A stretch of DNA of 64,000 bases, taken from an uncultured delta proteobacterium. GTDB lineage: Bacteria; Desulfobacterota; Binatia; UBA9968. This document shows positions 7,493 to 52,478 of the stretch, one piece after another (position 1 is the first letter of the stretch; the number at the start of each line of letters is the position of its first letter). The notes under the pieces were generated by a model that was not told the origin of the DNA, ran no database searches, and saw nothing but the letters and a program-made list of their open reading frames with translations. The stretch covers positions 800,001 to 864,000 of the forward strand of contig CAVUVW010000013.1 of NCBI GenBank assembly GCA_963745035.1. The letters are read 5' to 3'. Made by a program: the position numbers and the translations under genes.

Positions 7493-8614
7493 ATGGCCAA
7501 GAACGGTTTCAAAGCGATGGATTCCGACATGCATGTTTTTGAGCCGGCGGATCTGTGGCAGCGCTACATCGACAAGAAATATCTCGAGCGCGCGCCGAAG
7601 GGGCTCAATCGTTCTTTTCGCGATCTGGGCATCGAACTGGAAGGCAAGATCATGCCGATTCCCCGGCAGCCGGAAAATCCCGCGCTGGCGAAATACCGGC
7701 AAGACTTCTTCGAAGAAAAATATGGCGAAGCCGGCAAGAGAAATTTCGACGGCGTCTCGCAAATCCAGGCGATGGACAAAGAAGGCCTCGATGTGGCGGT
7801 CCTCTTTCCGACCCGTGGGCTGACGGTCTTGGGCATGGACGGCCTCGATCCCGACTTCGCCACCGCCATCGCCCGCGCCTACAACGATTGGCTGCATGAT
7901 TTCGCCGCGACGAATCCGCAGCGCATGTACGGCGTCACCATGGTCGCGCCCCACGACATCAGCGGTGCCATCGAAGAGATTCGCCGCACGGCGAGGGAAT
8001 ACGGTTTTCGCGGTATTTTTCTGCGCCCTAATCACGTTAACAACAAAAAATGGAGCGACCCCTACTACGATCCGCTCTGGGCGGAGTGCGAAAAGCAGAA
8101 CCTGCCGGTGGGCTTTCACGAAGCCGGCAGGGTGTATCTGCCCCAGCCGGCCTTTTTCCACATCTGCTCGACGTTCTCGATGTTCAACACCTTCGGTTTT
8201 CCGTTTGCCAATATGCTCGCCTGCGGCGACATGATCTTCGGCGGCGTCATGGAGCGCTTTCCGAAATTGAAAGTGGCCTTCCTCGAAGGCAACTGCTCCT
8301 GGGCGCCGTGGCTTCTCTGGCGCATGGGCGAATACGCCGAAACCACCGGCAAAGCGGAGTATCCCTACTTGACGCTGTCACCGCTCGAGTATTTCCAACG
8401 CCAGTGCTACGGCGCGGTCGAATGCGACGAGATCACGGCGAAGCATATTCCGGAGTACGGTCTAGAGGACAACATGGTGTTCTCCACCGACTATCCGCAC
8501 CTCGACGTAAAATATCCGCACGCCATTGATACGTTTCTCGAGCTGCCCTTCCCCGAGCAGATCAAACGCAAGTACCTTTGGGACAACTGCGCTAGGCTTT
8601 ACAACTTCGAATAG
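7493..8614 (+). CDS. Amidohydrolase_2 family metal-dependent hydrolase/decarboxylase
   Basis: MDSDMHVFEP (DxDxH), AYNDWL, PVGFHE, AFLEGNCSW, FSTDYPH, DNCARLY. Confidence 0.92.
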   Translation: MAKNGFKAMDSDMHVFEPADLWQRYIDKKYLERAPKGLNRSFRDLGIELEGKIMPIPRQPENPALAKYRQDFFEEKYGEAGKRNFDGVSQIQAMDKEGLDVAVLFPTRGLTVLGMDGLDPDFATAIARAYNDWLHDFAATNPQRMYGVTMVAPHDISGAIEEIRRTAREYGFRGIFLRPNHVNNKKWSDPYYDPLWAECEKQNLPVGFHEAGRVYLPQPAFFHICSTFSMFNTFGFPFANMLACGDMIFGGVMERFPKLKVAFLEGNCSWAPWLLWRMGEYAETTGKAEYPYLTLSPLEYFQRQCYGAVECDEITAKHIPEYGLEDNMVFSTDYPHLDVKYPHAIDTFLELPFPEQIKRKYLWDNCARLYNFE

Positions 8615-8621
8615 AAAGGAA

Positions 8622-9111
8622 ATTAACCGCAAAGAACGCAAAGGTCGCAAAATAGGATTATGACGGAGCGCGAGATCAATACCCTCTGCGACCGAGTGAG
8701 GCAAACTGCTTACGAGATACACCTGTACCTCGGCAACGGACATTTAGAAAAAGTTCACGAGAACGCCCTCGCGCATCGTTTACGCAAGGCCGGTATGAGG
8801 GTGCTGCAACAATGTCCCTTAAATGTCTATGACGAAGACGGAACGCCTTGGGTGAATACTTCGCGGATCTATTAGTCGAGGGGATCTTGGTTATCGAAAC
8901 GAAAGCAGCCAAATCACTAGCTATTGAACACGAGTCTCAGATTCTTGGTTATCTTAAATCCGCAAAAATTGAGCACGGCTTGTTGATGAACTTCGGCGGG
9001 CCGAAGTTTCAGATTCGGAAGTTTGTCTGGTCACGGGTGCGAAACATCGACAGACCAATATGACCAACGTGCGCCCTCTAGTTTGCGTACTTTGCGTTCT
9101 TTGCGGTTAAT
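8622..9111. mobile_element. Candidate GxxExxY element bounded by 30-bp terminal inverted repeats built of 9-mers
   Basis: Left arm 8622-8651 ATTAACCGCAAAGAACGCAAAGGTCGCAAA; reverse complement of right arm 9082-9111 ATTAACCGCAAAGAACGCAAAGTACGCAAA (28/30 identical). The arms enclose only the GxxExxY gene. Confidence 0.7.
8660..9063 (+). CDS. GxxExxY (PDDEXK_3-like) nuclease-fold protein (frameshift near 8850)
   Basis: Joining 8660..8875 with 8848..9063 gives LGNGHLEKVHENAL...GEYFADLLVEGILVIETKAAKSL...QILGYLK...GLLMNFG. The motif here reads GxxExxH. Confidence 0.9.
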
Positions 9112-9175
9112 GTCTCAGACCTCGATCTCTATCAATACCGGAGCGTGATCGGAAGGCCGCTCATGGGCGCCGCTC

Positions 9176-10432
9176 TTACGTCAGGTGCCTACCCGGCGCG
9201 GCGTTCCAGGGTTTGACCAGCAACGCGGTGAGCAGCGCGCCGAGCAGGAGCAGGCCGCTGATTCCCCACAGGGTCGCGATGTAGCTTTGGCTCTGGTCGT
9301 ACAGAGCGCCGGCGATGACCGGTCCAATGACGCCGCCCCACGTGTAGAAAAAGGCCATGGTGCCGCGGATGGTGGCGAAGTATTTGCGTCCGAAGAAGTC
9401 GCCTATGGTCGCCCAAACGATGGGAAACGACGCGTCTATCGCGGTGAAAAGAATGGTAAACGACCAGAGCGCCCAAAGCGCATCGCTGCGAATGAGCAGA
9501 ACCACGGAAAACATGGCGGCGAGCATGCACGCCGCCAAGAGCTTGGGCCGGTTGACAGCGTCGGCGATCGGGCCGACGACGTAGTGCGCGGCCCAATTGA
9601 GAAAAGCAAAAGCGCCGAGCAAAAAGGCGGCGTGCTCCTGGCTCAAGCCCTTCCATACCATGATCGGTATGAAGTGCACGCTGATCGTGCTGTAGGCGGC
9701 GACGCGCACCGTCATGCCGATGACGAAGAGCCAGAAGACCATCGTTTTCATGGCTTCGCGCAACGTTGGATCGGTATCGGCCGATTTTTTGGGTGATCCG
9801 TTTTTTCCGCTGTCGCCATGCGCCGATGATTGTCGCGGCGCGTCACCGTCCGGCAACAGGCCCATGCTTTCCGGCGACGACCGCACGCCCAGCGCCAGTG
9901 GTATCCCCAGACAGAGGAAAAGCGTACCGGCAAGAATCGCGCCCCAACGCCATCCCCAGCTTTGCACCGCAATGGCGAGAAGCGGTGTAAGCAGCGCGCC
10001 GCCGATCGGCACGGCTGAGCTGATCACCGTCATGGCGCGAGCGCGGTAGCGGATGAACCATGTGTTTCCCACGGCCATCGAGGCGTGAACAAAGCCGGGC
10101 GTAAACGAAAGAGAGATGACGCCCAAATACACGATCAAAAAAGTCGTGTAGCTGTCGACCCAGGCGAGCAGGATATAGCCGGCGCCACACATGACCGTGG
10201 CGAGGAGCAGCATGGGCCGCGGACCGAAGCGGTCGATGAGATAGCCGACGAAGGGACCTTCGAGAGCGCCTTCGGCACGCGCCAGAGAGAAAGCCAGGGA
10301 CGTAGCCGCGCGGCTGAGACCTAGATCGTGGCTGAGCGGCAGAAAAAAAACCGTGAAGCCGTAGTTGTGCAGCCCGCCGCCGAGAACGCGCAGGGCGGTC
10401 ACCAGGCCGACCATGCGCCAGCCGTAAAACAT
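9176..10432 (-). CDS. Major facilitator superfamily transporter
   Basis: MFYGWRMV start, about 12 hydrophobic segments, GYLIDRFGPR motif A, DFFGRKYFATIRG. Confidence 0.93.
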   Translation of the reverse strand: MFYGWRMVGLVTALRVLGGGLHNYGFTVFFLPLSHDLGLSRAATSLAFSLARAEGALEGPFVGYLIDRFGPRPMLLLATVMCGAGYILLAWVDSYTTFLIVYLGVISLSFTPGFVHASMAVGNTWFIRYRARAMTVISSAVPIGGALLTPLLAIAVQSWGWRWGAILAGTLFLCLGIPLALGVRSSPESMGLLPDGDAPRQSSAHGDSGKNGSPKKSADTDPTLREAMKTMVFWLFVIGMTVRVAAYSTISVHFIPIMVWKGLSQEHAAFLLGAFAFLNWAAHYVVGPIADAVNRPKLLAACMLAAMFSVVLLIRSDALWALWSFTILFTAIDASFPIVWATIGDFFGRKYFATIRGTMAFFYTWGGVIGPVIAGALYDQSQSYIATLWGISGLLLLGALLTALLVKPWNAAPGRHLT

Positions 10433-12805: not shown

Positions 12806-14368
12806 GTGACTTTGGATTCTGATCAAGCCGCCGCATCGGACAACGGCGCCGCCAACCAGCATGTCGAACGACTCCGAGCCGTTTTGAACATTTGCCGGCG
12901 TATGAGCTCGATGGCGGACCTGGCTTCGATCCACGCGCTGATCACCCGTGAAGCTAAAGAATTGCTGCGGGCAGACCGGGTAAGCATCTTTCTTTTCGAC
13001 CGCGAGAACTGCGAGCTTTGGTCGGCGATCTCCCAGGAAGGTCGGACCATGCGCTTCGACGCGCGTCTGGGAATCGCCGGGGCGGTGGCGATGAGCGGCC
13101 AGACCATCAACGTCGCCGACGCTTACGAGCACCCGCTGTTCTATAAAGAGGTCGATGCCGAAACCGCCCACCGCACCGAGACCCTGCTCGCCGTGCCGCT
13201 CCACAATCTCGAAGGCGCCGTGATCGGCGTCGGCGAAGCCACCAATAAACTCGACGGCGGTTTTACCGACCATGACGCTGAAATCCTCGCAACCCTGGCC
13301 GCTCACCTTGCGGATCTCTTGGAAAATTCGCCGCTCGGCACGGAAATCAAGAACCGGGCGCTCGATCGGGCGCGGCCTGATGATGGCGCAGCCGACGCAA
13401 GCCAGGGCTTCTCCACGCAAAACATCGTCGGCATGAGCGATCGCACGCGCTCCATCATTCGGCTCATCGATCAAATCCGGCCCACCTCGGTCGACGTGCT
13501 TATTCAAGGAGAAAGCGGCACGGGCAAGGAATTGATCGCCAAAGCGCTCCATTTCAACAGCCCCCGAGCGCGGCAGCCGTTTATCGCGGTCAATTGCGCG
13601 GCGCTGCCGGACAATCTGCTCGAGAGCGAGCTGTTCGGCATTGAAAAGGGCGTCGCCACCGGCGTGGACCGGCGCATCGGCAAATTCGAAGCCGCCCAGG
13701 GCGGCACCTTGTTTCTCGACGAGATCGGCGATCTCAGCCTTGCCGCCCAGGCAAAAATTCTCCGTGTAGTTCAGGAGCGCGCGGTCGATCGCGTCGGCGC
13801 GCGAACCTCGGTGCCGATCGACGTGCGCATCATCGCCGCGACCAATCGCAACCTCGAGACCTGCATCGAGGAGAAACAGTTCCGCAGTGACTTATACTTC
13901 CGGTTGAGCGTGGTTCGCGTACAGACTCCGTCCCTGCGCGACAATCCCGCGGATATTCCCGCCCTCGCCCACCATTTTTTACAGAAGCACTGCGCGGCAA
14001 TGGGACTGGAAGCCAAACACCTTACCCCGGGCGCCGTCGAGCGGATGTCAGCCTATGACTGGCCCGGCAACGCGCGGCAGTTGGAAAACGAAATCAAACG
14101 GCTGGTGGCATCGGTGCGCGGCAAGACGATTGCCGAAGACCATCTGGGGATTCCGCGGCATCGGCCCACCCCGGCGCCGCAGCCGCCGGAAGAACAACCG
14201 CGGCCCGCAAAGTCGCTCGCCGAAGCCGTCGAAGCGCTTGAACGGCGGATGATTCAAGATGCGCTCACCGCCTCCGCCGGCAACCGTCTTAAGGCCGCGC
14301 GAGCGCTCGGGCTCAGCCGTCAAGGACTGTTCAAAAAGCTAAAAAAATTAAGCCTGCCAGGGCTCTGA
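12806..14368 (+). CDS. GAF-domain sigma-54-dependent enhancer-binding protein
   Basis: N-terminal GAF (GIAGAVAMSGQTINVADAYEHPLF...NKLDGGFTDHD); AAA domain [41 protein letters not shown]; C-terminal HTH. Confidence 0.93.
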   Translation: MTLDSDQAAASDNGAANQHVERLRAVLNICRRMSSMADLASIHALITREAKELLRADRVSIFLFDRENCELWSAISQEGRTMRFDARLGIAGAVAMSGQTINVADAYEHPLFYKEVDAETAHRTETLLAVPLHNLEGAVIGVGEATNKLDGGFTDHDAEILATLAAHLADLLENSPLGTEIKNRALDRARPDDGAADASQGFSTQNIVGMSDRTRSIIRLIDQIRPTSVDVLIQGESGTGKELIAKALHFNSPRARQPFIAVNCAALPDNLLESELFGIEKGVATGVDRRIGKFEAAQGGTLFLDEIGDLSLAAQAKILRVVQERAVDRVGARTSVPIDVRIIAATNRNLETCIEEKQFRSDLYFRLSVVRVQTPSLRDNPADIPALAHHFLQKHCAAMGLEAKHLTPGAVERMSAYDWPGNARQLENEIKRLVASVRGKTIAEDHLGIPRHRPTPAPQPPEEQPRPAKSLAEAVEALERRMIQDALTASAGNRLKAARALGLSRQGLFKKLKKLSLPGL

Positions 14369-35754: not shown

Positions 35755-35824
35755 TCACCACGAAGGTCACGAAGTTAAAAATTTACTATTGATCCTTTCG
35801 TGACCTTTGTGTGCTTCGTGGTGA
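35755..35824. repeat. Gene-less 9-mer-periodic inverted repeat (CACGAAG units)
   Basis: TCACCACGAAGGTCACGAAG...TTCGTGACCTTTGTGTGCTTCGTGGTGA in the cbbQ-cbbO spacer. Confidence 0.75.
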
Positions 35825-36736: not shown

Positions 36737-36828
36737 TTACCGCGAAGACCGCGAAGAAGACTCTCTCTATGTAGGGGCGGGTTTGAAACCCGCCCCTACG
36801 CCGTGTTCTTCGTGCGCTTTCGTGGTGA
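36737..36828. repeat. 9-mer-periodic inverted repeat with a nested GTAG-type REP
   Basis: TTACCGCGAAGACCGCGAAG...CTTCGTGCGCTTTCGTGGTGA arms enclose the palindrome GTAGGGGCGGGTTTGAAACCCGCCCCTAC (36771-36799). Confidence 0.75.
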
Positions 36829-52406: not shown

Positions 52407-52478
52407 TCACCGCTGAGACGCTGAGGACACGGAGACAATAGTCTAAAACACTCTGCGACCTCTGTGCCTCTGCGGTGA
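52407..52478. repeat. Gene-less 9-mer-periodic inverted repeat (CGCAGAG/CACAGAG units)
   Basis: TCACCGCTGAGACGCTGAGGACACGGAG...CTCTGCGACCTCTGTGCCTCTGCGGTGA between the tail gene and DUF6519. Confidence 0.75.

Follow-up and report, generated by a model that had tools for sequence, protein, structure and literature searches.

A GxxExxY nuclease gene between periodic inverted arms: one copy of a widespread, self-contained cassette

A small nuclease gene of the GxxExxY family, enclosed by two inverted arms that are each made of short units recurring every nine nucleotides, lies in a 64,000-nucleotide stretch of DNA from an uncultured delta proteobacterium of the Binatia (assembly GCA_963745035.1, contig CAVUVW010000013.1, positions 800,001 to 864,000 of the forward strand), hereafter the window. 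This feature is one copy of a widespread, self-contained cassette in which a nuclease gene is bracketed by periodic arms. What might the arms do for the gene that they enclose? We propose that their heptamer units are putative cis sites of the cognate nuclease, and that breaks together with host repair move, invert and amplify the cassette; our confidence in this proposal falls a little short of even. The function of the GxxExxY/PDDEXK_3 family is listed as unknown (PMC3424549). Our literature search, which covered sources other than subscription-only papers, found neither the arms nor a role for the family described, and searches with the arm sequences as text, or for PDDEXK proteins with mobile inverted repeats, returned nothing relevant. 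The cassette looks like an undescribed kind of self-contained genetic cassette.

The cassette in the window and in related loci

The first-pass annotation of this DNA had described two near-identical inverted arms closely flanking a gene of lower G+C content than its neighbors, and had seen neither a transposase nor a clear target-site duplication; on re-reading the sequence, we find this description to be correct. The core of the left arm, which lies 7 nt beyond the stop codon of an amidohydrolase gene, consists of ATTAAC followed by three 9-nt units, CGCAAAGAA, CGCAAAGGT and CGCAAA(ATA). It matches the reverse complement of the right arm core at 28 of 30 positions, the sole difference being the second spacer (GT vs TA), and in a repeat search the inverted repeat extends to 37 nt on each side, 89% complementary and 422 nt apart (Table 1). 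Only 8 nt separate the end of the left arm from the ATG at 8660, and only 18 nt separate the stop codon of the enclosed gene (9061-9063) from the right arm. The G+C content is 0.47-0.48 within the cassette and 0.57-0.62 outside it, and neither the list of open reading frames (ORFs) nor domain profiles reveal a transposase in the unit.

The enclosed gene belongs to the GxxExxY (TIGR04256)/PDDEXK_3 (PF13366) family and is present as two overlapping ORF pieces, which score 38.5 and 53.6 bits against PF13366 (cut-off 22) and 40.4 and 60.4 bits against TIGR04256 (cut-off 35). An intact form of the same gene exists as a 134-residue database protein, here called P0001 and used as our reference; the N-terminal piece is 98% identical to it over residues 1-63 and the C-terminal piece is 99-100% identical over residues 64-134. 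One nucleotide is missing near 8848, at codons 63/64, where the intact protein reads Pro-Leu and where the frame-1 CCT and the frame-3 TTG of the window share T8848. The window copy has a second lesion: its motif reads GHLEKVH, with histidine (Y33H) replacing a tyrosine that is found in P0001 and in at least 90% of the family alignment (A1), so that the GxxExxY motif itself is not present. The window copy lacks the intact frame of about 125-155 codons that is typical of the family and that is retained in 78 of 80 related ORFs. Because the rest of the window is rich in long uninterrupted ORFs, which cover 96% of it, the break in the gene is probably genuine, a single assembly error being the alternative.

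The PD-(D/E)xK-like fold, which the first-pass annotation took as established for these proteins, is supported both by conserved residues and by a structural model. D70, E80 and K82 are invariant in the family alignment and E30 is nearly so; the D70/E80/K82 motif is kept in the C-terminal piece of the window gene. An AlphaFold2 model shows a minimal PD-(D/E)xK fold with a predicted local distance difference test (pLDDT) score of 88, and its Foldseek neighbors are RecB-type, Cas4, AdnA, MGME1, Hjc and splicing nucleases, at template modeling (TM) scores of only 0.27-0.55; a sequence search of the PDB with P0001 gave no match. From the motif and the model, the nuclease is plausibly active in intact copies. 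The family is large, with 8,274 clusters at 50% identity (E up to 1e-3); a tblastn search against phage records gave no match, and the window holds no second GxxExxY gene.

A scan of species-representative genomes, with an alignment of close relatives as query, gave 80 related loci at 64-74% identity to P0001. By label they come from at least 10 phyla (Binatia, Verrucomicrobiota, Acidobacteriota, Nitrospirota, Actinomycetota, Planctomycetota, Chloroflexota, Hydrogenedentes, Lentisphaerota, Kiritimatiellota and others). The first-pass annotation had suggested looking for 9-periodic inverted repeats beside GxxExxY genes, and in this close subfamily such arms stand beside the gene in 79 of the 80 loci, the sole exception being L063. 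A search of 1.19 Mb for the unit CRCADAG repeated every 9 nt gave 331 runs, compared with 15 after mononucleotide shuffling. Of these 331, 228 have exactly three units and 290 have the GxxExxY gene no more than 700 nt away. The consensus of 227 three-unit arms, (A)(T)TTAAC-CRCARAGAA-CRCARAGAR-CRCARAGA, describes an arm of about 31 nt whose conservation ends just outside TTAAC and whose variation is nearly all A/G at unit positions 2 and 5, a restriction that is partly imposed by the search pattern. The gene is lower in G+C than its flanks in all 80 loci (mean 0.51 vs 0.60). Since these loci include vertically inherited copies, low G+C is a trait of the family, and we dropped it as a mark of recent arrival.

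Periodic arms are found beyond this subfamily as well, and their form varies with the nuclease. Two loci, L013 and L062, each carry, in addition to a main-subfamily copy with 9-nt-period arms, a paralogue of 35-39% identity whose CGCAAAG or CGCGAAG heptamers come as four units at an 8-nt period. Because the 8-nt and 9-nt arms coexist in these two loci, arm type tracks the nuclease subfamily and not the host genome. We also looked at eight distant members of the family (31-55% identity), which cultured bacteria carry on a plasmid or chromid. Inverted periodic arms are present in Bacteroides finegoldii, Gemmatirosa kalamazoonensis, Sphingomonas parapaucimobilis and a Bernardetia sp., and 9-periodic ACAAAT units in direct orientation are present in Prevotella nigrescens (L091); there is a 22-nt direct repeat in a Fusobacteria bacterium, an 11-nt inverted repeat in Treponema saccharophilum, and no repeat was found in a Persicobacter sp. 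In the Prevotella locus, a block with a small palindrome and three 9-periodic ACAAATnnn units stands on each side of the gene (236-355 and 782-880); these blocks are an AT-rich counterpart of the arms with another geometry. The proposal of a mobile cassette would have been undermined if most GxxExxY genes lacked arms, and most of those sampled have them: 79 of 80 close relatives, both paralogues, and, among the eight distant members, four with inverted arms and one with direct units.

The geometry of the arms around the gene is also variable. Calling an arm F when it is oriented as the left arm of the window and R when it is oriented as the right one, and considering, for each of the 80 loci, only the arm closest to the gene on either side, we count 38 F/R layouts (as in the window), 11 R/R, 8 R/F (a gene between two complete hairpins), 7 F/F, 15 that are one-sided or reach a contig end, and one without an arm. 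Every one of these layouts can be described as an F...R pair on the outside, to which inner arms may be added. Where the layout is F/R, the F arm mostly ends 7-21 nt upstream of the start codon; the R arm mostly shares sequence with the 3' end of the called ORF, whose stop codon is often the TAA of the terminal GGTTAA. Derived forms are present too. In L040 (9369-10500) the entire cassette is duplicated in tandem, with hairpins between the copies; in L017 (9106-9895) roughly ten tandem copies of an 82-nt hairpin unit stand upstream of the gene. The loops and spacers of that array are conserved, so it is a local amplification and not a CRISPR-like array, and Rfam searches at permissive thresholds returned only sub-threshold noise for both the L017 and L040 arrays. 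L058 (8593-8811) holds a deletion derivative that consists of both arms and 162 nt of interior, still encoding 45 residues of the nuclease.

Two side observations concern the arms themselves. In L018, L026, L027, L045, L053, L059 and other Verrucomicrobiota loci, and in L082 (1842-1923), the called ORF runs through the R arm, which would then encode a putative tail of about 20 C-terminal residues in ORFs of 148-153 amino acids; the Sphingomonas annotation contains such a tail. In L003, a lone F arm 2.1 kb upstream of the cassette (7804-7828) and a lone R arm 3.4 kb downstream (13817-13841) stand at the two ends of some 6 kb of DNA in which the amidohydrolase and transporter genes lie, and they may mark a larger composite structure or may only be scattered single arms.

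Contexts, gain and loss, and vertical history

The first-pass annotation had gone further, proposing an autonomous element mobilized by its own nuclease. Several observations agree with autonomy. Among 599 ORFs within 5 kb of the gene at 81 loci, we found no recurrent partner beyond groups of loci that share synteny, and neither an integrase nor a transposase. When these 81 loci are grouped by context with a strict linking rule, which overlooks a few genuine links, 62 groups result, and although phylum labels cluster on the protein tree, they change many times along it. The cassettes sit in very short intergenic spacers, often 2-30 nt after the upstream stop codon and even within operons, as in fabD-fabG-acpP-fabF, between radA and the gene for an FAD protein, and between ade and a guanylyltransferase gene. 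Solo hairpins or single arms are present in ordinary intergenic spacers of related loci, and the window itself has three solo 9-periodic hairpins where 0.03 would be expected.

Sites with and without a cassette, which the first-pass annotation had suggested seeking in relatives, do exist. In Sphingomonas parapaucimobilis, a cassette lies between fabD and fabG, its arms beginning 7 nt past the fabD stop codon and ending 22 nt before the fabG start codon; in S. paeninsulae, the same two genes are separated by a 32-nt spacer and the cassette is absent, and fabD and fabG are adjacent in Rhizobium and in other records too. At a second site, L058 has a cassette between two genes that in L027 are separated by a different spacer of 135 nt; here the spacer has been replaced and no junction is definable. 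Gain and loss extend to single hairpins, one of which is present upstream in L025 and L054 and absent from five syntenic loci. No target-site duplication was found. Across 32 simple elements (offsets 0-9, lengths 3-6), counts of matching flanks were not clearly above the shuffled-partner expectation; the largest count, 7 against 4.9 expected, falls inside the palindromic TTAA, and the others were 0-3 against 0.04-4.7. This result fits repair-mediated copying over transposition by staggered cuts.

The window copy itself tells of a long stay. At three other loci (L001, L003 and L006), an orthologous amidohydrolase gene (89-90% amino acid identity) directly adjoins the cassette. A four-way alignment (A2) runs collinearly through the end of the amidohydrolase gene, both arms and about 60 nt past the far arm, but the window carries the interior of the cassette in the orientation opposite to that in the other three. 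The arm cores are near-invariant across the four genomes, in which the adjoining amidohydrolase DNA is 80-83% identical. The window-type proteins (P0001 and close relatives) form one clade with those of L001, L003, L006 and P0027, with a Shimodaira-Hasegawa-like approximate likelihood ratio test (SH-aLRT) value of 97 in a quick LG+G4 tree of 85 rows that leaves out L038 and L073. Because the flanks are orthologous, the arms collinear, the proteins of one clade and the interior inverted, the window copy is an old vertical resident that has been flipped between its arms and not a recent insertion. A second candidate inversion, L026 relative to L059, was left as doubtful; the evidence for it is one match of 251 nt (72% identity) that lies some 400-700 nt away from the genes.

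Selection on the gene was estimated from 19 chosen syntenic pairs, in two of which the synonymous rate (dS) was saturated. In the 17 remaining pairs, with dS up to 2.6, the ratio of nonsynonymous to synonymous rates (dN/dS) was 0.00-0.11 in 15, and 0.27 and 0.38 in two pairs of low dS. The proposal of autonomy thus stands in part: the absence of a partner gene, the roughly 60 contexts, the solo hairpins and the gain and loss of cassettes speak for it, whereas the copy that inspired it is old, inverted and broken, and bears no target-site duplication.

Possible roles of the arms

Are the arms recognition sites, or are they the two halves of a stem? In 59 short hairpins, pairing between the two arms is 75.3%, compared with 74.7% (standard deviation 0.6) when partners are shuffled; there are 120 G:T and 122 A:C mismatches, an even balance, and no covariation between the paired arms was found. 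Because arm pairs in short hairpins are no more complementary than shuffled ones, and because arms occur in mixed orientations around the gene, the comparison suggests that each heptamer is constrained by itself, in the manner of a site recognized by a protein, rather than through selection for a stem of which it forms one half.

We therefore favor, with the slightly less than even confidence given above, a model of breaks and repair. The heptamers would be sequence-specific recognition sites for the cognate nuclease, which would nick or cut at or between the arms. Host repair or recombination, using the arms as short homologies, would then copy the cassette into new sites, and the same repair could also invert the cassette, delete it to leave solo hairpins, or amplify the hairpins. 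PD-(D/E)xK enzymes hydrolyze phosphodiester bonds and have no known ability to join strands; it is for this reason that we infer breaks plus host repair over transposition. The route would thus be homing-like, or would resemble that of the REP-associated tyrosine transposases (RAYTs) and their repetitive extragenic palindromic (REP) sequences, rather than cut-and-paste transposition. Once resident, the gene would be kept by selection, either through continued activity or through domestication.

A broader claim, which we regard as possible and hold tentatively, is that GxxExxY cassettes are a new class of prokaryotic selfish element in which the nuclease reads a modular heptamer code and leads a RAYT/REP-like lifestyle. 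The code would take the form of three units spaced at 9 nt or of four spaced at 8 nt, and unit sequence would co-vary with nuclease subfamily. Copying by breaks and repair would place cassettes in spacers just past stop codons, essential operons included, and cassettes would flip and shed solo hairpins. Such a lifestyle would have arisen independently of REP/RAYT, on a different nuclease fold, and would span at least 10 phyla, human gut Bacteroides and oral Prevotella included.

A number of observations weigh against movement by breaks and repair. Only one clear inversion event, besides the doubtful case, is seen among 42 syntenic locus pairs, and ordinary recombination between 30-bp inverted repeats could explain the inversion in the window. 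Strong purifying selection on syntenic orthologues fits a long-lived or domesticated resident better than a frequent jumper, and long vertical persistence, with 38 collinear locus pairs, is unusual for an element that needs movement to survive. The empty site of S. paeninsulae contains no hairpin, so that a pre-existing hairpin as a landing pad is unsupported there, and the species with the filled and the empty site, being only about 74% identical in nucleotide sequence, are too diverged to define insertion junctions. Solo hairpins away from the gene are sparse, at about 10 in 0.93 Mb (about 1 per 90 kb), and the three in the window use variant units whose cognate gene is absent from the 64 kb. 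Lastly, periodic arms are missing from three of the eight distant members (Fusobacteria, Treponema and Persicobacter), and some of the phylum labels derive from metagenome bins and may be wrong.

The first alternative places the function of the arms in RNA. Like an intervening sequence (IVS) of 23S rRNA, the cassette would be promoterless and transcribed by read-through, and its arms would be signals for RNA processing or insulation: they would pair into a duplex of about 22-30 bp with the ORF in the loop, a host RNase such as RNase III would cut the stem, and cutting would free and stabilize the nuclease mRNA while limiting damage to the host operon. As the main explanation we judge this unlikely, but an RNA role is a serious rival and one that is compatible with a role in DNA. 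In the predicted fold of the window RNA (8610-9125), the arms are paired in both the minimum free energy and the centroid structures (z -3.5), and solo hairpins have fold z values from -3.8 to -12.9. The commonest layout, F arm, gene, R arm in 38 of 80 loci, with the F arm mostly ending shortly before the start codon, is in keeping with such processing; no sigma-70-like promoter was found in 8300-9400; and cassettes lie inside operons between co-oriented genes, the downstream members of which are presumably still expressed. Arm pairs that flank genes are also slightly more complementary than their shuffled partners (79.3% vs 74.4%, standard deviation 1.1, n=19), although this excess may reflect arm subfamilies and not selection for pairing. 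There is a precedent in the selfish, ORF-bearing IVS of Coxiella, which is of similar size (PMC4990558). Set against these points are the short hairpins, with neither compensatory changes nor a G:U strand bias, and a second spacer that is mismatched in the window and in its three orthologues (GT/TA, TA/GG and TA/TT). The nearest arms at 26 of the 80 loci (those of R/R, R/F or F/F layout) are unable to form a stem that encloses the gene, and the Prevotella units are direct. A crude count of the upstream neighbor's strand shows no preference for co-orientation (39 plus vs 30 minus); it depends on choosing the longest ORF, which is unreliable in high-GC DNA, and we do not rely on it.

A second alternative is that the cassette is a domesticated host module. 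The nuclease would act in repair, recombination or defense, the arms would be operator or loading sites, solo hairpins would be by-products or regulatory sites, and present mobility would be negligible. Orthologous positions are kept across diverged genomes (the 38 collinear pairs and the synteny groups), the low dN/dS values and the 78 intact ORFs are those of a maintained gene, and the arms are more strongly conserved than the neighboring coding DNA; a single-copy, vertical pattern is also known for RAYT genes. We nevertheless consider this alternative improbable. The cassette occupies about 60 unrelated contexts in at least 10 phyla by label at 64-74% identity to P0001, with a gene of lower G+C than its flanks every time. 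Several paralogues may share one locus or genome, presence and absence alternate at a site in an essential operon, the window copy is decaying, and the functional neighborhood is not conserved.

Could the hairpins be attC-like sites, and the genes integron-type cassettes (in clusters of attC sites lacking an integrase) moved by a tyrosine recombinase whose gene lies elsewhere? The idea draws on the alternation of hairpins and genes in L040 and L013 (hairpin-gene-hairpin-gene-hairpin), on a hairpin length of about 70-100 nt, on ORFs that lack a recognizable promoter, and on the outer arm ends ATTTAAC and GTTAAAT, which resemble the attC core sites RYYYAAC and GTTRRRY, a likeness judged from the letters. 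It is very improbable all the same. No recombinase or other gene is a recurrent neighbor within 5 kb across 81 loci; in 38 of 80 loci the gene lies between the halves of a single hairpin, an arrangement not known from integron cassettes; the arms align without gaps and hence without the extrahelical bases that define folded attC sites; and the primary sequence is conserved across phyla with one gene family, whereas attC sites conserve structure and accept any cargo.

The last alternative, a chance inverted repeat around an ordinary gene, could appeal to the modest count in the window alone (5 matches to the pattern with two mismatches allowed, against 1.8 expected, a number reached in 1 of 100 shuffles), but it is refuted, to a negligible residue, by the arms at 79 of 80 loci, the 331 runs against 15, and the conservation of the arms in four genomes.

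Relation to known systems and remaining features of the window

Among known systems, REP/RAYT is the one to which the first-pass annotation had likened the cassette. Both have a single small nuclease-type gene, kept at fixed loci under purifying selection, between inverted copies of a short repeat that can form a palindrome, and in both, further copies of that repeat lie singly or in clusters in intergenic spacers. They differ in the enzyme, which has a PD-(D/E)xK fold in the cassette (PDDEXK_3 is the only domain found there) and is of the HUH/Y1 type in RAYTs; in the repeat, which in the cassette is an arm of about 31 nt made of three or four periodic heptamers and in REP sequences is one imperfect palindrome; and probably in abundance, with hundreds of REPs per genome compared with the one copy per 90 kb or so that we see away from the gene in the sampled DNA. 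The cassette is, moreover, spread over many phyla and contexts.

Other systems share other parts of this picture. Free-standing homing endonuclease genes, some of which encode PD-(D/E)xK enzymes, likewise consist of a nuclease gene alone, wedged between conserved genes that lie close together, and share with the cassette the occurrence of filled and empty sites in related genomes (here fabD-fabG), the lack of a target-site duplication and a spread that would need host repair; unlike the cassette, the known ones have no periodic inverted arms of their own and leave no solo hairpins. Miniature inverted-repeat transposable elements (MITEs) and foldback transposons have terminal inverted repeats of short tandem units and gene-less derivatives, comparable to the solo hairpins and to the deletion derivative in L058, whereas the cassette has no DDE transposase, no target-site duplication and, in the sampled DNA, a low copy number. 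The ORF-bearing IVSs of 23S rRNA in Leptospira and Coxiella are close in dimensions, with an ORF of about 120-135 codons within inverted repeats able to pair into a long stem and a unit of about 430-490 nt. The cassette differs from them in lying between protein-coding genes, outside rRNA, in encoding a PD-(D/E)xK protein where the Coxiella IVS encodes an S23p protein, and in having arms of periodic heptamers without compensatory changes. The Coxiella IVS is described as selfish, 428 nt long and carrying an ORF within helix 45 of the 23S rRNA, and IVSs are regarded as horizontally transferred (PMC4990558).

Arms that travel with the gene across phyla turn a nuclease of unknown function into a concrete hypothesis, and the material to test it is available: the protein, its DNA or RNA target, and carriers in culture. 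Should the nuclease indeed read a periodic heptamer code, the cassette would be the second system of the REP/RAYT kind, with an evolutionary origin of its own, and might yield new sequence-specific nucleases; the short periodic palindromes that lie between genes in many environmental and gut genomes would then be explained as well. Were the selfish-element reading true, it would also supply a function for a family that numbers more than 8,000 protein clusters (50% identity). A role of the arms in RNA processing would, for its part, reveal a way for a selfish gene to reside within an essential operon and leave it intact.

Table 1. Features of the window, numbered from its first nucleotide
Feature	Position	Strand	Basis
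Upstream neighbor, Amidohydro_2 family gene	7493..8614	+	PF04909, E 1.2e-35
Left arm, F orientation	8619..8655, core 8622-8651	+	Sequence read, repeat search
N-terminal gene piece (intact-form residues 1-63, then out-of-frame read-through to a stop)	8660..8875	+	PF13366 positions 2-53, TIGR04256 positions 2-52
Codon 33, CAC (His) at the family Tyr of the GxxExxY motif	8756..8758	+	Translation vs P0001, alignment A1
Frameshift site	8846..8850	+	Two-frame translations vs P0001
C-terminal gene piece (residues 64-134) with D...ExK catalytic motif ADLLVEGILVIETKA	8848..9063	+	PF13366 positions 58-115, TIGR04256 positions 58-116
Right arm, R orientation	9078..9114, core 9082-9111	+	Reverse complement of left arm core
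Right flank	9115..9175		Homologous to sequence past the far arm in L001, L003 and L006 (alignment A2, columns 600-660)
Downstream neighbor, MFS transporter gene, convergent with the amidohydrolase gene	9176..10432	-	PF07690, E 1.8e-37
Solo hairpin, variant unit CACGAAG (TCACC-ACGAAGGTC-ACGAAG ... CTTCGTGGTGA), in the spacer between two minus-strand ORFs	35755..35824		DNA fold z -5.65
Solo hairpin, unit CGCGAAG, in the next spacer of the same minus-strand gene row	36739..36826		DNA fold z -5.79
Solo hairpin, mixed units (CGCTGAG, CACGGAG / CTCTGCG, CTCTGTG)	52407..52478		DNA fold z -3.80

Around the cassette, an Rfam search of 8400-9300 gave no rRNA or other family, the only matches being sub-threshold ones to CRISPR repeats, microRNA hairpins and cis-regulatory (leader) elements. 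Beyond the right arm, the roughly 60 nt of homology to the orthologous loci stops at the MFS gene in the window and runs further in L001, L003 and L006. The MFS gene differs from the neighbor found at those loci, and the short flank is, judging from the alignment, probably the remnant of a neighboring gene that was lost or replaced in the window lineage. One of the solo hairpins has a structure of its own: a G+C-rich palindrome, GTAGGGGCGGG...CCCGCCCCTAC (36770-36798), is nested in the loop of the 36739-36826 hairpin, and it looks like a member of a second, unrelated family of palindromic repeats inserted into the periodic one.

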